IMG/VR virus record: IMGVR_UViG_3300043103_000226
Coordinates: 1-38,217 of that record
DNA from: a virus
Lineage: Duplodnaviria > Caudoviricetes
DNA: 38,217 nucleotides
Direction: 5' to 3' (one strand)
This document shows positions 1-38,217 of this stretch, piece by piece. Below the pieces are notes generated by a model that was not told the DNA's origin, did no database searches, and worked only from the letters and a program-made list of their open reading frames with translations. The translations under genes were made by a program, and so were the position numbers. Each line of letters begins with the position of its first letter. Position 1 is the first letter of the stretch.

Positions 1-127
1 AGTCGATGCCACCCTGCGCCGCTCCACCGTGCGCTGGCTGCGCTACGATGATCTGGATCTCTTCTGGTTCTTCCGCCGCATCGAGGGCGAGATCCTCCGC
101 GCCAATGCCACCTTTGGCTACGAGCTC
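1..127. repeat. 127-bp terminal direct repeat (copy 1), assembly circularisation overlap
   Basis: 1-127 is identical to 38091-38217; 127 is a common assembler k-mer; an ORF reads through the junction in frame. Confidence 0.95.
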
Positions 128-442
128 CAGCACAGCAGCACCGAGTGGCAGCTCACCGAATACGACAGTGCCGACCGCCAACTCTACGACTGGCATCAAG
201 ACAGCAGCGAGCTCTGCAAAGATGCCTTTGAGCGTAAGCTCACCCTTGTGCTCCAGCTCACCGACCCCGCCAAATACGAGGGAGGCACCTTTGAGCTCAA
301 AGGTGATCCCCTACCTGAAACCCATTTCAAAAATGCTGGTGATCTCCTCTTTTTTAGAAGTGCCCTCTGGCACCGCGCCACCGAAGTCACCCAAGGCAAA
401 CGCTACAGCCTCGTCAGCTGGATCAAAGGCCCGAGACGGTAA
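1..442 (+). CDS. 2OG-Fe(II) oxygenase, prolyl-4-hydroxylase/PKHD-like (3' part; gene starts at 37963 across the junction, 189 aa)
   Basis: HxD (YDWHQD), RKLTLVLQL..YEGG strand, distal His (LWHRA), 2OG-binding RxS (GKRYSLVSW). Confidence 0.9.
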   Translation, partial: VDATLRRSTVRWLRYDDLDLFWFFRRIEGEILRANATFGYELQHSSTEWQLTEYDSADRQLYDWHQDSSELCKDAFERKLTLVLQLTDPAKYEGGTFELKGDPLPETHFKNAGDLLFFRSALWHRATEVTQGKRYSLVSWIKGPRR

Positions 443-752: not shown

Positions 753-774
753 TTGACACCGCCCCCAGATCGTG
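753..774 (+). promoter_or_regulatory. late element TTGACA-N13-GTG
   Basis: TTGACA 753-758, start codon 772. Confidence 0.7.
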
Positions 775-2622
775 GAAACCGCGATCTTCGTCAACCTCTC
801 CAAATACACCGCTCACGCAGGCATCACGGGGGTAGCACCTCCCACGGTTGACTGCACTCTGCTCACCGAGTGGCAGGTCAGCTTTGCCTTCTTCCAGCCC
901 GGCTCCGCCGCCGCTGCCCTCAGTGGTGCCACCTTCCGCTTTGCCCTCAAAGAGACCCCCACCAGCAGCCCGCTGATCTTTAGCAGCAGCCTCACCAATT
1001 CAGGGGCCGTCTACACGGCCGACTTCAGCAGCGTAGACAGTGCCGCCCTGCGCACCCTCATCGGCGATCAGCCCACCATCGAAGTCGTCGGCGAGATCGA
1101 GTGGACCATCAGCAGCCGCCGTGAGCGCGTGCATTTCCCCGTCACCGTCACCAATGCCTGGGCACGGCCTGACGACGCCGCACCCGATCCCGTCGCAGAG
1201 GCCAGCATCGTCTGGTTCAATGAGCAGCTCGCCACTCGCGCCGTGCGTTTTGATGTCGCTCAACAACTCACCACACAGCAGAAGACCCAAGGCCGCGACA
1301 ACCTAGGCATCACCGGCACCGGTGGCAGTGCAGCCTGGGCAGACATCACGGGCAAGCCCAGCACCTTTCCGCCAAGTGCCCACACGCATAGTGCTTCCGA
1401 TATTGTCAGCGGCGCACTGGCCGTGGCTAATGGCGGCACCGGATCAACAACCGCATCGGCCGCACGGGAAGCCCTAGGTCTGAGACTGGCCCAAGATGTG
1501 CAGCCTTACAGCGCGGTTTTGGATGCACTGCTGCCTCTTAATGTGCTGGATACTGGAGGCGATGTCGGAACCACTCTTCAGCTAGGCTCTGGTGCAAATT
1601 TTGTTGACGATAATGCCACGACATCAGGAGGTGATGCTGGGGAAATAAGGCTTGTAGGCGGAGATGCGTATGGAGATGCCTCGATCCAGCGTAACGGCGG
1701 AGATGCAGGATTGATTCTGATGCTTGGCGGTCATGCCTCTGATCAGTCTGAAGGCGGAGCTGCTGGCACCATCAATACCAGCGCATCCGGTCAATACCTT
1801 GGCGGCAGCCTGCTGATGAATGCCACTGACCGAAACGCAGGCAGCATCAACACGCAGGCTGGTGGTAATCTAACCATGGGCACAGCCAACGTCTCAGGGC
1901 CAGCCGTTGCTGGCACGCTGCTCACTGATGCCAGCAGCCTGCCAGCCGCTAACCTCACCGGCACCATCGACAATGCTCGTTTAGCTGCAAATATCACTGG
2001 TAGAGCAAGCTTTTCTGCCACAGACGGATCAACAAAAGACTCATCTTTAAGTGCCTCAAATCTTTCTTTTACGGATAACGATTCAGGTCAGCTAGTTAGC
2101 ATAGAGACGCCTGCCACAGGCAGTCAAATTTTCCTCACTTGGCCAAGTTCGACTGGCGTCTTACTAACCAACAACAGCAGTCTTCCAGCCGCTAACCTAA
2201 CAGATACGATTGCAGCAGCTAGAATGGGTTCAGGCACTGCGAACTCGAGCACCTACCTGCGAGGTAACAATACTTTTGCAGCCTTGCCAACAACCATCCA
2301 ACTTGCCTGCTCCGACGAAACAACGGCACTGACTACTGGGGTAAAAGTGACCTTCCGAATGCCCTATGGGATGACTCTCACGTCAGTGCGAGCTAGTCTG
2401 ACAACTGCACCAACGGTGTCCTCGGTTATAGTGAATGTTAAAGAAAGTGGTGCTACTGTTTTAAGTTCTTTGCTGACCATTGCTACTGGATCAAAAACTA
2501 GCACGACAACATCAATCAGCGACTCGTCATTGGCTGACGATTCGGAGATAACAATAGAGGTAACACAAAGTGGAGGCGTGGCCGCAGGTTTGAAATTAAC
2601 GCTCATTGGAACAAGATTATGA
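772..2622 (+). CDS. tail fibre / baseplate-attached fibre protein (616 aa)
   Basis: BppU-like N-terminus, WADITGKPSTFPPSAHTH fibre motif, GALAVANGGTG motif, Gly-rich shaft, repeated LLTxxSSLPAANLT, C-terminal beta domain. Confidence 0.8.
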   Translation: METAIFVNLSKYTAHAGITGVAPPTVDCTLLTEWQVSFAFFQPGSAAAALSGATFRFALKETPTSSPLIFSSSLTNSGAVYTADFSSVDSAALRTLIGDQPTIEVVGEIEWTISSRRERVHFPVTVTNAWARPDDAAPDPVAEASIVWFNEQLATRAVRFDVAQQLTTQQKTQGRDNLGITGTGGSAAWADITGKPSTFPPSAHTHSASDIVSGALAVANGGTGSTTASAAREALGLRLAQDVQPYSAVLDALLPLNVLDTGGDVGTTLQLGSGANFVDDNATTSGGDAGEIRLVGGDAYGDASIQRNGGDAGLILMLGGHASDQSEGGAAGTINTSASGQYLGGSLLMNATDRNAGSINTQAGGNLTMGTANVSGPAVAGTLLTDASSLPAANLTGTIDNARLAANITGRASFSATDGSTKDSSLSASNLSFTDNDSGQLVSIETPATGSQIFLTWPSSTGVLLTNNSSLPAANLTDTIAAARMGSGTANSSTYLRGNNTFAALPTTIQLACSDETTALTTGVKVTFRMPYGMTLTSVRASLTTAPTVSSVIVNVKESGATVLSSLLTIATGSKTSTTTSISDSSLADDSEITIEVTQSGGVAAGLKLTLIGTRL

Positions 2623-6181: not shown

Positions 6182-6197
6182 GTAGGAGTCTTTGGGG

Positions 6198-7364
6198 ATG
6201 AAAATCAGGCGTCGTGTGTATAAATCGGGGACGGTATCTTACCAGGTGGATTTTGGGATTGTAGAGGGGCAACGGGTCCAAAGGTCGTTCCCTACAAAAC
6301 AGGAGGCGCGGGAGGCGGTGAGTCAGGCGGGGGTGGCACGGGCTCGCCATGGGCATGTGGCGGGGGCTTTGTCTTCACGGGAAATGGCGGAGATTATCCT
6401 GGCTAAAGATCGGCTGAAAATCACGGGGGCTTCGATTGCTGAGGCGGTGGATTTTTATCTGGGGAATGCGCCGGTGATGACGAAGAGCGTGAAGCTGAGG
6501 AAGTTGATCGATCTGTTCACGGATGCGAAGGAACGTGCTGGATGCAGCACGAGGTATGTGCGGCAGCTGCGGGTTTCCCTGGGGGCGGTGGAGAGGTCGA
6601 TGCCGGAGGTGATGGCGCATGAGGTGAAGCGGGAGGATGTGGAGTCGTGGCTGCGCTCGGGGACTTGGGCGGCGAGGACTAAGAACGGCTACTTGGGCGA
6701 TGTGGCATCGCTGTATTCATGGGCGATGCGCGAGGGCTATGCGCGGATGAACCCGGCGGTGATGGTGGATCGGGCGCGAGTGGCGGAGGGGGAGATCGGC
6801 ACGCTGACTTTGGCCCAGTGTGAGGAGCTGCTGCGCGCTGCGCTGAATGAGCCGCATGTGATGCCGTATCTGGTTCTGGGAATGTTTGGTGGGCTGCGGC
6901 CTGCGGAGATCGAGCGACTGGAGTGGCGGGCGGTGGATCTGGAAGCGGGGACGGTGATTGTGTCGGGTGCTCAGGCGAAGACCAGGCAGCGGCGGGTGGT
7001 GGATCTGTGCCCGAATGCGGTGGCGTGGATTCAAGCCTCCTTCGCTCTGCAAGCTACGAAGCCCACGGGCCCACTCTGTGGAAAATGGTGGGATGGGCGG
7101 TGGCGTTTGTTCCGGCACGCTTTAGGCTGGGCGGTGGGTGCGGGAGATCTGCGGGTGCCACGGCCGGACATCAAGCCGGTGCATGGGCTGTGGCCTCAAA
7201 ATGCGCTGCGGCATACATTTGCGAGCATGCACTATGCGCATCATCAAAATGAGGCGGCTTTGCAGGTGCAGATGGGTCATGAGTCGGCTGCGATGCTGCA
7301 CCGGCATTATCGAGCTATTAAAACAAGATCGGAGGCGGGGAAGTTTTGGGAGTTGCGGCCGTGA
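6198..7364 (+). CDS. int: tyrosine integrase
   Basis: arm-binding N-terminus, SAM-like core, GLRPAEI (R), AKT (K), NALRHTFAS, QMGH, RHY (Y); AGGAG RBS favours ATG 6198. Confidence 0.95.
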   Translation: MKIRRRVYKSGTVSYQVDFGIVEGQRVQRSFPTKQEAREAVSQAGVARARHGHVAGALSSREMAEIILAKDRLKITGASIAEAVDFYLGNAPVMTKSVKLRKLIDLFTDAKERAGCSTRYVRQLRVSLGAVERSMPEVMAHEVKREDVESWLRSGTWAARTKNGYLGDVASLYSWAMREGYARMNPAVMVDRARVAEGEIGTLTLAQCEELLRAALNEPHVMPYLVLGMFGGLRPAEIERLEWRAVDLEAGTVIVSGAQAKTRQRRVVDLCPNAVAWIQASFALQATKPTGPLCGKWWDGRWRLFRHALGWAVGAGDLRVPRPDIKPVHGLWPQNALRHTFASMHYAHHQNEAALQVQMGHESAAMLHRHYRAIKTRSEAGKFWELRP

Positions 7365-7984: not shown

Positions 7985-8518
7985 ATGAATGGAAATCAAA
8001 CTTATTGGCTCTGCCGTGCGCAGGGATGTGCGACTGAGGGGCCGTTTACGTTGGCTCAGTTAACCACGATGTATGGTAAGGGTGCGGTGACGGCTGAGGC
8101 GATGCTGTGTGAGGCGGGATCTAGAACATGGGTGCTGTTGGTCCAGGTGCTGGAGGGTGGCGGAAAGGTGGCCTTTATTCACTCTCGTAAGATACGGGTC
8201 GGTGGTAGCACGCTGCTGGCTGTGTGCCTGTTCCTGATTGGGCTGTGTATGCTGATCTCTGCTTTGTTTCTGATTGGCTTGGCTATCATGGCAGCGAGTG
8301 GCCTGGTGCGGGCTAAGTATCGCATTGAGTCTTTCTGCTCGGACTGTGGCAACACAGTGGCAATGACGAGCCTCACCTGCCCCTCCTGTAAGGCTGAGCT
8401 TGAGCTTCCGCCTGAAACCAGTCAGCAGAAGATGACGAAGATCTTTTGGTGGATGCTTTATGCGGTGATCTTCTTTTGTATTGGCTTGATGATCGTCAAT
8501 GGTCTGGCCCCAAAGTGA
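7985..8518 (+). CDS. membrane protein with GYF_2-like N-domain, TM hairpin, zinc ribbon and C-terminal TM
   Basis: YW...EGPFTLAQL..MY..G.VT...W; CSDCG..CPSC; hydrophobic segments. Confidence 0.7.
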   Translation: MNGNQTYWLCRAQGCATEGPFTLAQLTTMYGKGAVTAEAMLCEAGSRTWVLLVQVLEGGGKVAFIHSRKIRVGGSTLLAVCLFLIGLCMLISALFLIGLAIMAASGLVRAKYRIESFCSDCGNTVAMTSLTCPSCKAELELPPETSQQKMTKIFWWMLYAVIFFCIGLMIVNGLAPK

Positions 8519-31865: not shown

Positions 31866-31893
31866 GTGTCAATGACACGCGCCGTTAAGTATG
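31866..31893 (+). promoter_or_regulatory. late element variant ATGACA-N13-ATG within palindrome GTGTCA-A-TGACAC
   Basis: ATGACA 31872-31877, ATG 31891. Confidence 0.55.
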
Positions 31894-33858
31894 GCGGCAG
31901 AAATTCAACTGGGGTGGAATAACAACCAATTACGCGCGGGAGCCGCTGGGGCCTCCGCCATTGTCAGCCGTGCTACGGCTGATATGAAAAAAAGCTTGGG
32001 TGACATTAGTTCCGGACTTGGGGCTGGGCTGGGCTTTGGCATCTTTGATACGGCTAAAAACATGATCGTTGGAGCCACGGGCGCGATCTATGAAGCCACC
32101 GTTACCGCCGACTCTCTACGCAATGGCATGACGGCACTAGAAGGTAGTGTGAGCTCCGCCAATCAGCGGCTCAATGAAATGCGCCAACTGGCCAAAGATC
32201 CAGGCCTTGGCTTTGAGCAGGTCGTGCGCGGAGACATCAGCCTGCGCAGTGTCGGCCTGAGTGCTGAGCTTTCCACCCGTGCGATGCGTGAGTTTGGCAA
32301 TGCGCTGACCGCTGTGGGTAAAGGCAAAGCCGATCTGGATGGCGTCTTGCTAGCCATCACTCAGATCGTTTCCAAAGGCAAAGTCAGTGCTGAGGAAATC
32401 AATCAGATCGCAGAGCGTGTGCCGCAGATCCGTAACGTGATGAAAGAAACTTTTGGCACAGCTGATACTGAAGCCCTCCAAAAGATGGGTCTTTCAGTCG
32501 AGAAATTTGTGGAGATGCTCGTTCAAGGTTTTGAAAATAATATTCCACGCGCCATTGCTGGCCTTCAGGGTAAAGTGGACAATTTCACTGATGCGGCCAC
32601 ATCGCGCCTTGGTGACTTTGGTGAGGGATTATCAAAAGGCTTTTTAGGCCCTTTATCGGATGCCACCAGTGTGTTGGAAAAAAGCACCGGAGAAAGTAAA
32701 GCTTTCGGTGAAGCTCTAGGTTCTATTGGCATGGCCTTTTATGAAGTCGGTAAATTATCCGCTACCGGCTGGAAAATCATGCTTGATGGCTTTGGTGAAT
32801 TCAGCACTAAGGTAGCCTTTGCGGGCTTGGAAATGGCAGGCTTTAAACGTATCGCCACCGAAACCAAAGAAGAAACGTTTCGCCTTAGGCTGGCGGAGCT
32901 TCAGGCAGGCTGGGCAGCTGATGATCTAGCCCGTTCTCAGCGTGAGGCTGAGGCCACCACCAAGAGACTTTCGCAGGCTCGTGAAGAAGCGGCCCGACGC
33001 GCCAATGAGCAGGCCATGGCCGAGGCTAAGCTCACGGCGGAGATCATCAAAAACACCAATGCGTCACGTGACAATTTCATGTCGGAGCGCGGCAAGACAG
33101 CAGACCTTTACCTAACGGATCAAGAAAAACTTGAAAGGGTCAAAGAACGCATCGCCAAGATTGATGCGGACATCAATAAAACTGTCGGCCAAACAGGTGG
33201 CGAAGAGATCACCTACAAACTCATGGCGGCCCGTGAGCAGGCCATGCAGGAAATTTTGCAACTTAGCAAATCCATCGCCGCTGAAAATGAGCGTGCCGCT
33301 GCGACGGATACCAAAAGCCTGCGCTCATCGGCTGAAAAAGTCGCCACGAAAGAACGCTCTCTGCAGCTGCTGGACCTGGAGCTAAGCATCCTGCAAGCGC
33401 AGGCCAAGGGTCAGGATGAAAAGGCCCGTCGCTTACAGGAAGAAGCGGAGATCATTGAGACGACAGCTCGCCTGGTCTCTGAATTAGGGCTGTCCTACGA
33501 AGATGCTGCTCAAAAGGCTACGCAACTGGTGAAGGCCCGTGCTGCAGCAGAATCCCGCCAATCGGGCCGTGATGAAAATGGCCGATCTAAAATCCAAGGC
33601 TATTCCCAAGAGCAAGGCGGCCGCGAGGATGCTCGGGGACGCGCGCAAATGCGGACGAATGAAGCGCGTCAAAACTATGATGATTCCATTCAAAAATTCT
33701 TTGGCAATACCTCGCGCACCGACACCCGCGGCCTGTCTGCTGGCGCGAGGATTCCCGCAGCGGAGACGGCTAAGGATGGCGGCATGACTGAGCTGACCTC
33801 GGCCTTTGACGCCTTTGCTACTAAGACAACAGAAATTTTTGAACGTGCCCTGAACTAG
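31891..33858 (+). CDS. tape measure protein (655 aa)
   Basis: AITQIVSKGKVSAEEINQIAERVP tape-measure domain, long Ala/Glu helical region. Confidence 0.9.
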   Translation: MAAEIQLGWNNNQLRAGAAGASAIVSRATADMKKSLGDISSGLGAGLGFGIFDTAKNMIVGATGAIYEATVTADSLRNGMTALEGSVSSANQRLNEMRQLAKDPGLGFEQVVRGDISLRSVGLSAELSTRAMREFGNALTAVGKGKADLDGVLLAITQIVSKGKVSAEEINQIAERVPQIRNVMKETFGTADTEALQKMGLSVEKFVEMLVQGFENNIPRAIAGLQGKVDNFTDAATSRLGDFGEGLSKGFLGPLSDATSVLEKSTGESKAFGEALGSIGMAFYEVGKLSATGWKIMLDGFGEFSTKVAFAGLEMAGFKRIATETKEETFRLRLAELQAGWAADDLARSQREAEATTKRLSQAREEAARRANEQAMAEAKLTAEIIKNTNASRDNFMSERGKTADLYLTDQEKLERVKERIAKIDADINKTVGQTGGEEITYKLMAAREQAMQEILQLSKSIAAENERAAATDTKSLRSSAEKVATKERSLQLLDLELSILQAQAKGQDEKARRLQEEAEIIETTARLVSELGLSYEDAAQKATQLVKARAAAESRQSGRDENGRSKIQGYSQEQGGREDARGRAQMRTNEARQNYDDSIQKFFGNTSRTDTRGLSAGARIPAAETAKDGGMTELTSAFDAFATKTTEIFERALN

Positions 33859-33859
33859 T

Positions 33860-34732
33860 ATGCCTTTACCTCCCCAAGTGATTTCCTTCGGTGCTCTGGA
33901 AGAGCAGATCGGTGGCCTGAGATGGCGGCTCCGGCCTAATGATTTTGATTCCTGCTTTTACAGCGTGGATTCTACCAATGAAGCCTTTGTGAGCCCCGGC
34001 GCGGCCATGCCGGGCTACCCGATCATGCGGGCTGTGGATGTGGCGGCCAATCAATTGGGTGATGTGTGGGTCTTTGATGCGGAATACAAAGGCTTTAAGT
34101 CTGCGGCAGAAACATGGCGGCTTTTTCAATCCTCAGAAAATTCACCTTCAGAAGGCTTTGATAACATCAGCATGGTCATCGGCACGCGCACGCCTGATGA
34201 TCCGATCTTTGCCCGGGGTGAGCTTTCACCTTTGGCTGGGCCGCATCCGCAGATGTATATCATGGATGTGGCCAAGGAGCCGACGGAGATCGCCGGATAC
34301 ACGATGATGAACTTGCAGCTGCGTGGCCAGATCGGCAATAAGCCCTACACGCGCCGCATCAACACTGCCACCCAGACCTTTTCACCTTCGGCTCCATGGA
34401 CTGCGGCGGATCAGATCAATGGCAACGGTGACCCGATTTACGGATGGACTGCGGAGGGTGCTCAGCCTGCTGAATTCACGATCCCACGGACGACTCTGAC
34501 TGACAGCTTTGTGACCATCACTGAGCCGCCGTTCAATGGCATCCCTGGCAACGTGCTGCCGGAAAATCGGCCTCTACTCACTGAGTTCACTTTTTGGACC
34601 TCCGGCGGCTACCGTTACCACTGGCCCTATGGCTGGCGGAGAGCCAGCATCAGCTCAGAGCAGCTGCCCGGCAGGAATGTGTGGTTTGTCAGCATCACCT
34701 ATGAAGCCCAACAAAAAATCCTCCCTGAATAA
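33860..34732 (+). CDS. distal tail / tail tip protein (putative)
   Basis: 290 aa immediately after the TMP. Confidence 0.55.
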   Translation: MPLPPQVISFGALEEQIGGLRWRLRPNDFDSCFYSVDSTNEAFVSPGAAMPGYPIMRAVDVAANQLGDVWVFDAEYKGFKSAAETWRLFQSSENSPSEGFDNISMVIGTRTPDDPIFARGELSPLAGPHPQMYIMDVAKEPTEIAGYTMMNLQLRGQIGNKPYTRRINTATQTFSPSAPWTAADQINGNGDPIYGWTAEGAQPAEFTIPRTTLTDSFVTITEPPFNGIPGNVLPENRPLLTEFTFWTSGGYRYHWPYGWRRASISSEQLPGRNVWFVSITYEAQQKILPE

Positions 34733-34955
34733 TCCTGAGCTAACTGCAGCTCTGCCGCCGATCTCGGCCCAGATGCAGGCATTCATGGAGAAAAGCTTCA
34801 CGCCGCACCCTGGCCGGTGGTTTTATCACCTCGACCAATTTCAGGCAGACATTGATTCGCAACTCTTGGTTCGCGGATTGGTGGAGCGTGAAGAGGTCGA
34901 GTTGAAAGGTCTAAAGCTCCATCGTTATCGATTGGCTGAATCCATCCCTGAATGA
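34701..34955 (+). CDS. small hypothetical protein
   Basis: start uncertain (34701 or 34773); ATGA overlap with collagen A. Confidence 0.5.
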
Positions 34956-35968
34956 TCCAGAAGCGGCCAGTCTATCGCCTAAGAGCTCAGCGTGGCATTG
35001 CTACGCTGCGCATGATGCGTGACTTTGCTGCGTGGTTAGGCCCACGGCTCAGCGCGCCTTTCGACATCCATTTTAACGGTGAGAGATCCCGCGGCGAAAA
35101 CACGTCTAACCTGACGACGATCGATCACCATTTAGCCAGTGGCAGTGGTGGGCCTGTGGGGCCGACGGGTGATCCCGGTGCACCGGGTCCTGATGGGCCG
35201 CCCGGAAGTGCGGGAAGTCCAGGCACACCAGGCGCAGCGGGCACACCAGGCACACCGGCACCACCTGTGGGACCTAAGGGCAGGAAAGGCCAAAAAGGTA
35301 GCAAAGGCGGCGTGGGTGAGCGCGGAGATCCCGGCCCAGCCGGTGAGCGCGGAGATCGCGGAGATGTAGGGCCTGTGGGTGCATCCCTGCCCGGTTTGCC
35401 GGGCCCACCGGGGCCACCGGGAAGTATTTATTATGAGGGTGAACCGGGGCCCCCTGGGGCACCGGGGCCAAACGGTTTACCGGGACCAGCGGGGCCACCG
35501 GGGCCACCCGGAGAGCGTGGGCCATCCGCCATCACACCCGGCGGCCCAGGGGAACCCGGCCCGCCCGGCCCTGAGGGGGCTACAGGTGATTTTGGAGACC
35601 CGACCAAGACGGCTATTCTGAACACGTCACTGGGCATCTTTGGCATGGCAGCGGTGGAGATGCCGGAGGCGCGCTTCCGTGAGCAGATCAAGGTAGTGCT
35701 TAAAAACCGCCCCGTGATCCATACCATTGATGCACGATTCCTCGGCAGCATCGAGCCCTGCTCTCTGCGCATTGTTTCCATCATCAGCACTAGCCCAGTG
35801 AAGGTGGAGCTTAAAGGCAGCCGCGTGCATGTCTCAGCCCAGTGCCATGCCGTGGCCACGATCATCGTCTCAGGCATTCGGCGTGGTTTTTTAAATCAAC
35901 GTTTCCCTAGATTCACCGCTGATCAAATGCACGCCAATGCTAACTTTTACCGGAGGGCTCACCGCTGA
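34952..35968 (+). CDS. collagen-like protein A (338 aa)
   Basis: ~47 Gly-X-Y triplets between N- and C-terminal domains shared with B and C. Confidence 0.9.
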
Positions 35969-36978
35969 TGGAAGCTCGCAGAAAACCGCTGAAATACAGG
36001 CTGCCGCCGAAAGGGGTGCTGAAGGTGGAGTCACTCAATGACTTCGTAAAATTCATGGGCCGCGCGCTCAATTTTAATGTGAACTTTGACTCAGCCACCT
36101 CACAGGTCCGCGCTGATGGCAGCACTTACGTCACCGGCGCAGGTGGTGAAGGTGGCCCTGGCCCAAAGGGACCCGACGGGCCAAGCGGTCCAACCGGGCC
36201 ACCGGGCTCAGCCGGTAGTAATGGCATGCCCGGAGCCCCCGGCGGCAATGGGGCCAGCCCAGTGGCCCCCATCGGCCCAGACGGTGATCCCGGTGAGATG
36301 GGAGATCAGGGTTCCAAAGGGCCCGCAGAAACTGAACCTGGGCCCAAAGGCCCCAAGGGAGATCCCGGCCCGCCTGGTGATGACCTAGCGGGACCAGCCG
36401 GACCACCCGGAGAAATAGGTGAGCCTAACATTGATCCTGGTCCTGACGGGCCTCCGGGCCCGCCCGGCCCACCCGGCACACCTGCCTTTGAACCCGGCAG
36501 TCCGGGACCTCCTGGAGATCCGGGCGGCCCCGGCTTTACCTTTCCCGGTTTGCCCGGCGATGAAGGCCCGCCTGGTGCTAAAGGTGAGCCGGGGAATAAA
36601 TACGCCATCGTCACGATCCCTGATGGCCGCCATGTGGGCCTGCATGCCACAGAGGCCTCGCGGCCGTGGTTCATGGATGAAATCACGTTTAAGATCCCGC
36701 CGCTGCTGGCCTACATCGATCTGCCCATCGATGCGCTTTTATTAGGCAGTATTGAGCCAGCGAGCCTCTGCGTCATTCAGACCAGCACGCCTGCCATCGG
36801 TGCCCAGATCATGGGAGATCGGGTCCGCATCACCGCGAGTCCTTTCCGCCTTTCCAGCATCACCGGCGTGGTCACGCTGGCAGGCATCCGCGCCGGATTT
36901 TCAGACTGGCATTTCAAAAGCTTCACGGCTGAGCAAATGACCCGAAACAACGCCTTTTATTCCGCCGCTTATGGTTAG
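35968..36978 (+). CDS. collagen-like protein B (336 aa)
   Basis: ~44 Gly-X-Y triplets; TGATG overlap with A. Confidence 0.9.
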
Positions 36979-37966
36979 CCAAAAAACAACGTATCGATTC
37001 AAACGCAGCAAGGGCTTTGCTTATGTTTCAGATTTTCGGGAGTTCGTGAGCTTTGTGCTCGCACGACTGCAGCAGTCCATCGCGAACCCAAACATCATCA
37101 AAATCTCAGAGTTGCCTGATGGCTTTCAGGTCACGTTCGATGCCGAGACTGCCACCACCGGCCCTGAAGGACCTGCGGGACCAGAGGGGCCAACTGGCGG
37201 CGTAGGCCCTGCGGGAAGTCCAGGCACACCGGGAGCCCCCGGCACACCAGGCATCCCCGGCGCAGCCGGTGGCAGTCCTGGGCCCCCAGGAGATCCTGGA
37301 GATAAAGGCGATCCCGGAGATCCCGGTGACCCGGGCCCTTTCACGATTGGAAACAAAGGGGCCATCGGCCCACAGGGCCCAGCGCAGACCGTCGGTGGTC
37401 CTACTGGCCCGCCTGGCCCTGTGGGACCTCCGGCTGGTCCTAACACCATCGTCGGCCCTGATGGCCCTCCGGGCCCGCCCGGAAATCCCGGACCTGAAGC
37501 TGAGGTCGGGCCTAAGGGGCCACCCGGTTTGAATGGCTTCTCTAGTTTTGGTCCTGACGGTCCGCCCGGCCCGCCCGGCCCTGTCGGTCCTCCCGGCCCT
37601 AAGCTAGCCATCGTGAAGTCCTGTGATGAAATCGTCGGCCTGCATGTGCTAGAGGCACCTGAGTTTCGCTTCCTTGAAATCATGCCCTTCACTGACAGTG
37701 GCCGCCTGCCCATCGACCCGCGTTTCCTCGCCGTCTGTGAGCCTGACAGCCTCACCGTCATCGGCCTGGTCACAGCACGGCCGGCCGCCACGCGTGCCAT
37801 CCTGCACCATGACCGCGTGCAGGTCATCTGCCCGCGTGGTATGACAGGCACCGTAACTTTATCAGGCATCGCTAAAGGTCACGCATCACGGCGATTCCCT
37901 GAATTCACCGCAAACCAACAAAACCAAAACGCCGCCTTCTGGGCGTCGGCCCTCATCGCCTCATGA
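36971..37966 (+). CDS. collagen-like protein C (331 aa)
   Basis: ~44 Gly-X-Y triplets; 8-nt overlap with B. Confidence 0.9.
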
Positions 37967-38217
37967 CTCGTAATCACTGGTATCACAGCCCAGCCTTTCT
38001 GACCCCGAAAGAATGCACCATGCTCATCAAGCATGCCGTAAAAAACTACCCGGCCAAGCCAGCCGTCGTCGGCCATGGCGGTCAAAGCCGAGTCGATGCC
38101 ACCCTGCGCCGCTCCACCGTGCGCTGGCTGCGCTACGATGATCTGGATCTCTTCTGGTTCTTCCGCCGCATCGAGGGCGAGATCCTCCGCGCCAATGCCA
38201 CCTTTGGCTACGAGCTC
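37963..38217 (+). CDS. 2OG-Fe(II) oxygenase (5' part; continues to 442)
   Basis: ATG 37963 overlaps the collagen C stop; [25 protein letters not shown]...[12 protein letters not shown] is in frame with ORF 29-442. Confidence 0.9.
38091..38217. repeat. 127-bp terminal direct repeat (copy 2)
   Basis: identical to 1-127. Confidence 0.95.

Follow-up and report, generated by a model that had tools for sequence, protein, structure and literature searches.

A candidate collagen prolyl 4-hydroxylase encoded beside three collagen chains in a phage tail module

Collagen prolyl 4-hydroxylases (P4Hs), i.e., the animal collagen P4H (C-P4H), an algal P4H, and vCPH from the chlorovirus PBCV-1, employ a lysyl residue as 2-oxoglutarate (2OG) ligand, and vCPH acts on proline-rich repeats and on collagen-like peptides. 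vCPH is not known to form an operon with three collagen chains. Here we describe a locus of the Caudoviricetes record IMGVR_UViG_3300043103_000226, of which the whole stretch of positions 1-38,217 was analyzed and is called the window, where three collagen genes are followed by a gene for a 189-residue oxygenase. This enzyme is probably a phage collagen P4H that acts on the collagen fiber of the phage itself, as gene order and protein sequences suggest, and the three-chain fiber may possibly hold one copy of each chain.

Several described systems resemble the window system in part. vCPH (5c5t) is also a small single-domain viral prolyl hydroxylase of the same fold (TM 0.71, 18% identity; profile match to the window enzyme with E 8e-4), but it originates from a eukaryotic virus. 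PPHD from Pseudomonas putida (4iw3), which is the top structural match (TM 0.78), and PHD2-type enzymes share the arginyl 2OG ligand in an RxS-like motif as well as the proline-binding Arg and Tyr; in contrast, they act on EF-Tu or HIF-α, are at most 21% identical, and have no collagen neighbors. Animal heterotrimeric collagens and C1q are similar in the proportion of Gly-X-Y triplets with proline at Y (Y-Pro; 44% in the phage, 42% in human non-fibrillar collagens), in their interrupted helix, in three paralogous chains of matched length, and in a C-terminal globular domain. However, the phage enzyme is devoid of the peptide-binding TPR domain and the PDI partner of animal C-P4H and has a cytoplasmic setting, the phage C-terminal domain is unrelated, and hydroxylation and a mixed trimer are only predicted here. 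EPclP prophage fibers of E. coli O157:H7 are tail-module collagens between N- and C-terminal domains too, but they have 7% Y-Pro, are homotrimeric, and have no hydroxylase (PMC3368898). The same paper states that bacteria and viruses lack collagen hydroxylase; according to its Table 4, Y-Pro is 9.3% in viral collagens, 3.7% in Gram-positive ones, and 42.2% in those of the human non-fibrillar type. In the bacterial operons of Iyer et al. (2010), gene neighborhoods predicted that dioxygenases modify co-encoded collagen-like or tail-collar proteins, but other (β-hydroxylase) enzyme families and sulfotransferases are involved, and the passages concerned contain no Y-Pro analysis (PMC2938197). Prokaryotic collagens have been described as homotrimers without hydroxyproline, in a text that also mentions a P4H from Bacillus with activity toward synthetic peptides, and the modification of mimivirus collagen (PMC8968730), and bacterial heterotrimers are mentioned only as a possibility (PMC7743900). 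In aquatic phages, P4H genes rank with the most frequent auxiliary genes, their role being called “cryptic” and tail-fiber collagen being mentioned (PMC9301287). No published collagen hydroxylase or collagen heterotrimer of a tailed phage was found in a search whose scope excluded subscription journals and supplements, and the supplement of PMC2938197 could list cases.

The oxygenase clade and its collagens

Counting only runs of at least three Gly-X-Y triplets, Y-Pro amounts to 59 of 134 triplets (44%) in the three chains together, and X-Pro is as high (60/134; 17, 18, and 25 in chains 1-3), with 7, 8, and 9 GPP triplets, respectively. An earlier note, made from the sequence alone, had given hand counts of 21/47, 20/44, and 21/44 for Y-Pro, of which the first stands and the other two become 19/44 and 19/43; the interruptions ending in Pro-Gly that it had called many do occur, but they make up less than half (7/17). 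Interruptions divide the chains into stretches of 3 to 13 triplets, the longest unbroken run of each chain comprising only 10-13, and all three exceed the Pfam cut-off for PF01391 (62, 45, and 48.5 bits vs. 27.2).

The window enzyme possesses the iron triad H108-x-D110 and H167 and the 2OG ligand motif R177-x-S179, just as had been read before as HQD...H...RYS, and it exceeds the Pfam cut-off for PF13640. The structural model of a relative with 93% identity (P0001; pLDDT 88.5) displays the double-stranded β-helix (DSBH) fold of the prolyl hydroxylase type, and Foldseek ranks the P. putida P4H first, followed by an algal P4H with peptide (3gze), vCPH, a PKHD protein, and PHD2. In a profile alignment to the algal P4H, R49 and R121 align directly with Arg93 and Arg161, Y105 matches Tyr140 by its spacing before HxD, and W183 is matched to Trp243 only by its position after the 2OG ligand. 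In the algal enzyme, Arg93, Tyr140, Arg161, and a Trp surround the target proline, and a Tyr in this position distinguishes C4 from C3 hydroxylases (PMC2847220, PMC4396695).

Enzyme scans and collagen-pattern loci provided 167 oxygenase frames, which were clustered at 90% into 66 clusters. In a tree of these clusters plus the window enzyme, with which an earlier 54-row tree agrees, the window enzyme belongs to a clade of 22 clusters (support 96/92). A collagen is encoded at most 1.5 kb away in 21 of the 22, and the remaining one ends at a contig end beside the same C-terminal domain. Clade-adjacent collagens have 15-88% Y-Pro with a median of 47% (n = 21), whereas outside the clade, where 20 of 44 clusters have a Gly-X-Y frame of at least 14 triplets within 3.2 kb, the median is 4% and one frame lies above 23%; four of these 20 frames are probably Gly-rich non-collagens (X-Pro at most 4%), and one true outside collagen with 0/22 Y-Pro (L223) was dropped by the density filter. 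X-Pro is equal in both groups (57% in the clade vs. 52% outside), and Thr occupies Y in 41% of the triplets of outside collagens vs. 5% in the clade. Members of the clade come from lambda-like, other mid-size, and 200-kb phages, its collagens occur with or without the C-terminal domain, and G-[HY]-G is present in 22/22 of its clusters, in the segment aligning to the substrate-enclosing finger loop. The case rests on the fact that the collagen link persists although phage backbones, the number of chains, and the flanking domain vary.

A control scan starting from the C-terminal domain of non-clade proteins yielded 73 loci, none of which contains the clade enzyme. At least 14 triplets are present in 23 of them and, once two Gly/Ser tracts had been dropped, the remaining 21 collagens (9 lineages, including a 66%-GC pair) show 0-22% Y-Pro and mostly Gln or Thr at Y. 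When 19 of the 23 records were searched whole, the only match was an outside-type enzyme among replication genes. Also observed, often in tandem and in fragments of large phages, were very long collagens (274-475 triplets; L521, L524, L526-L535) that share this C-terminal domain and have Gln in about 55-80% of their Y positions.

The four overlapping genes would be translated together late in infection. Fe(II) would be bound by H108, D110, and H167 and 2OG by R177 and S179, and X-Pro-Gly of the unfolded chains may be held by R49, Y105, R121, and W183 under the G-H-G finger loop. Hydroxyproline formed from Y-Pro would stabilize a short, much-interrupted triple helix; the C-terminal β-sandwich domains might, from what is known of such families, register the three chains so that the helix zips up, and the basic N-terminal segment is guessed to dock on the tail. 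With a collagen rise of 2.88 Å per residue (PMC3368898), the helix would be about 40 nm long, and the collagen is likely a tail fiber or whisker of this size. The cassette lies in the tail module. The C-terminal domain has no Pfam or PHROG family, no Foldseek match in the PDB, and no Atlas match of at least 0.9, a structural search found nothing at Z ≥ 8 and fiber tips only at Z 6-6.8, and in BFVD it resembles viral tail and uncharacterized proteins. A Peptidase S74-like chaperone was considered for it and dropped for lack of support in family and structure searches.

One helix or three fibers

Chain spans were taken from eleven sets of three genes, to the exclusion of near-copies and of two sets that are truncated. 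Their helices span 58-156 amino acids, with a standard deviation (SD) of 3 amino acids within and 28 amino acids between sets, and none of 50,000 permutations matched chain lengths within sets as tightly. In a quick tree of nine genomes the C-terminal domains group by gene position (3 changes vs. 13.6 when shuffled), which indicates that, once the paralogues had split, all three chains changed in length jointly. Pooled across sets, 96 break positions match vs. 61±5 after segment shuffling (0/5,000), a null that replaced a uniform-random one, and 66 vs. 48 match once the first break is left out (1/5,000).

The co-varying chain lengths suggest a heterotrimer, but between a heterotrimer and three equal fibers the sequences leave about even odds. 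Three separate homotrimeric fibers of equal reach, with no mixed helix, would fall just short of an even chance. Eight clade lineages have a single collagen chain, so that a homotrimer can work, each chain of the trio has a full C-terminal domain, prokaryotic homotrimers are the described state (PMC8968730), and the breaks of the window's own chains are out of register, aligning no better than chance (8 vs. 7.4), which weighs against the mixed helix. On the other hand, sets of exactly three genes recur, including two whose chains lack the domain (L107, L363), the three positions are old paralogues and yet their lengths co-vary, and the pooled break matches exceed the shuffled expectation with or without the first break. 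The full proposal of one heterotrimeric helix together with a dedicated single-domain, cytoplasmic P4H of PHD-type ancestry with G-H-G loop that hydroxylates its Y-prolines, as an independently evolved animal-style system, would be a tentative one with clearly less than an even chance. A complex prediction for the three C-terminal domains, folded without alignments, scored 0.00 and favored neither arrangement.

At L107:3979-5267 and L363:3424-4541, trios of bare chains that have no flanking domain precede the clade enzyme, and in L107 the breaks are almost exactly in register; at L312:142-806, two such chains are visible before the clade enzyme.

Other substrates and functions

A P4H with another target, be it a host protein such as EF-Tu or another virion protein, for which the collagens are mere tail-module neighbors, is unlikely. 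The structure that matches best shows Pseudomonas PPHD in complex with its substrate EF-Tu (PMC7864055), and the wider oxygenase family (10,793 representatives at E ≤ 0.001; 315 phage records) adjoins many tail genes whatever their Y-Pro content; however, the link of the clade to Y-Pro-rich collagens held across phage backbones and collagen architectures, and collagens with the same domain but without the clade enzyme use Gln or Thr at Y.

Several observations weigh against a collagen P4H. The four proline-binding residues are invariant in all 66 clusters, 44/44 outside the clade included, so that nothing about collagen follows from the active site by itself, and the whole aquatic-phage family looks, from these residues, like peptidyl prolyl 4-hydroxylases. 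Outside enzymes with these same residues (L208, L333, and L384) abut collagens with 0-2% Y-Pro, which makes adjacency to a fiber gene alone weak evidence. The 2OG ligand is Arg177, with Arg in 21/22 clade clusters (the remaining one is truncated), making the enzyme PHD-like and not a member of the Lys-type collagen P4Hs, and the window system most likely works like animal or chlorovirus collagen hydroxylation without belonging to that type. Three sister rows have G-H-G and no adjacent Y-Pro collagen (L327 with 1/13 Y-Pro, L365 and L389 with no collagen within 5 kb), and the L299/L310 lineage inside the clade has only 15-21% Y-Pro. The clade has a single origin, so that small p-values overstate independence, the no-enzyme control records are mostly fragments, and GC content differs (58% for clade loci vs. 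45% outside). Across viral collagens at large, the family enzyme is near 4 of 48 loci found by a (GPP)3 pattern (123 loci, 80 flanked, 48 with collagen frame) vs. 6 of 54 found by an X-Pro control pattern (129 loci, 80 flanked, 54 with collagen frame), and in whole records (35 chosen for each) the proportions are 7/30 and 6/31. At least one complete genome has a collagen with 42% Y-Pro and no enzyme.

GC content was rejected as the sole cause of the Y-Pro difference, as neither the clade nor the outside group by itself shows a trend of Y-Pro with GC. For viral collagens as a whole, the (GPP)3 and X-Pro counts likewise led to the rejection of a general association of Y-Pro with the enzyme: most Y-Pro-rich viral collagens have no enzyme nearby, so Y-Pro does not require it, and the implication is one-way, the clade enzyme implying a Y-Pro collagen and not the reverse. 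The earlier note had proposed comparing oxygenase presence with Y-Pro fraction and adjacency and had taken Y-Pro-rich collagens of related phages without the oxygenase to speak against its idea; the clade largely tracks both properties, but viral collagens in general do not, and such enzyme-free collagens do exist among them. On one contig (L389 and L070), a sister G-H-G enzyme is encoded ~18 kb from a collagen with 9/33 Y-Pro, which may be a distant pairing.

That the collagens are hydroxylated as a handle for decoration (glycosylation, sulfation, or acylation) or for receptor or defense recognition rather than for stability is improbable. Iyer et al. predicted hydroxylation and then sulfation of bacterial collagen-like proteins (PMC2938197), and two enzyme-like genes separate collagen and clade enzyme in L354. 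However, no transferase family was detected among the 40 window proteins scanned, and Pro enrichment is specific to Y, the stabilizing position. The L354 collagen (L354:2261-5534) falls into two zones: Thr occupies Y in the first half, and Pro does so in the second. Judged by eye from their motifs, the two intervening genes resemble an acyltransferase and a glycosyltransferase.

A PKHD/PiuC-type or small-molecule oxygenase unrelated to proteins is very improbable: the best PDB sequence matches are PKHD-type hydroxylases, public labels read “PKHD-type hydroxylase”, and the Arg ligand behind an earlier PKHD-like caveat is confirmed, but that caveat is weakened in that the enzyme scores 17-44 bits, a value of 39.5 bits among them, with PKHD models including NCBIfam PRK05467, whose cut-offs are 143-399, the matches cover mainly its C-terminal half, and aligned PKHD proteins have Thr/Ile-Arg-Thr and Phe where it keeps the proline-binding Arg and Tyr.

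Gene cassette, phage genome, and implications

The collagen trio with its oxygenase is a real, conserved module (Table 1), in the order tape measure, conserved gene of no known family, three collagens, oxygenase, and minor-tail-like genes. Neighboring collagen genes overlap, as do the stop codon of collagen 3 and the oxygenase ATG, so the three collagen genes and the overlapping oxygenase start (37963) reported in the earlier note hold. As it had also recognized, the oxygenase gene crosses the circular junction: its single 189-codon frame is intact there, is uninterrupted in L001 (98% identical), and is contiguous in X1 and X4. A search anchored on the upstream gene found 11 loci, nine with the full cassette (on contigs already in the data) and two ending before it.

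Table 1. Positions of the cassette and of other features in the window.
Feature	Position	Strand	Remarks
Tape measure protein	31891..33858	+	Context
Conserved gene, no known family	33860..34732	+	Between tape measure and collagens; places cassette in tail module
Collagen chain 1 (338 aa)	34952..35968	+	~63-aa N-terminal segment first
Chain 1, interrupted collagen	35141-35605		47 triplets, 21 Y-Pro
Chain 1, C-terminal domain	35606-35968
Collagen chain 2 (336 aa)	35968..36978	+
Chain 2, collagen	36136-36597		44 triplets, 19 Y-Pro
Chain 2, C-terminal domain	36598-36978
Collagen chain 3 (331 aa)	36971..37966	+
Chain 3, collagen	37160-37600		43 triplets, 19 Y-Pro
Chain 3, C-terminal domain	37601-37966
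Oxygenase gene, 5' part	37963..38090	+	G-H-G finger-loop motif; His38 codon at 38074
Oxygenase gene, 3' part	1..442	+	Codons: R49 17; Y105 185; H108 194; D110 200; R121 233; H167 371; R177 401; W183 419
Minor tail protein-like gene	772..2622	+	Downstream of oxygenase; context
Tyrosine integrase	6192-7364
GYF_2-domain protein	7985-8518
127-base terminal repeat	38091..38217	none	Equal to 1-127; circular junction, hides gene link

The first and last 127 bases of the window are identical, so that the genome is a 38,090-bp circle. Among the 40 chosen proteins scanned are an integrase, lambda-type terminase and portal, a Clp protease, a major head protein, and the tape measure; the phage is tailed and temperate, with a gene for a tyrosine integrase. 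Positions 34500-38217 lie mid-contig in a second assembly (X1, possibly from the same sample), and a single contig of another study (X4) spans the whole cassette stretch. A search of a genome collection gave one distant match and no host link, and among cultured phages none has the clade enzyme (closest 36% identity) or the collagen C-terminal domain.

A 60-codon frame (34773-34955, +) between the conserved upstream gene and collagen 1 overlaps the start of the latter and looks like an insertion, as the upstream gene directly adjoins collagen 1 in L001. Read on the minus strand, the collagens likewise give Gly-Pro repeats (35431-35877, 36306-36686, and 37126-37869), and of two chains the public gene calls for the record contain no more than C-terminal pieces of 107-117 aa (P0050, P0053), so these collagens are easily missed. 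At L026:2342-4099, a terminase-like gene is followed by no more of the cassette than chain 3 and the enzyme, while the near-identical L302-L304 have all three chains; the missing chains reflect either a deletion or an assembly error.

If this 189-residue enzyme evolved as a collagen P4H of the bacterial cytoplasm, it would be a direct candidate for the production of recombinant, hydroxylated collagen in E. coli, and heterotrimers, if they form, could be directed by the C-terminal domains; hydroxylated recombinant collagen and heterotrimer control have been named as open problems (PMC8968730). The system, if true, contrasts with reviews in which prokaryotic and phage collagens are homotrimeric and without hydroxyproline. 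The clade gives one branch of the “cryptic” viral prolyl hydroxylases a specific candidate substrate and a sequence mark.

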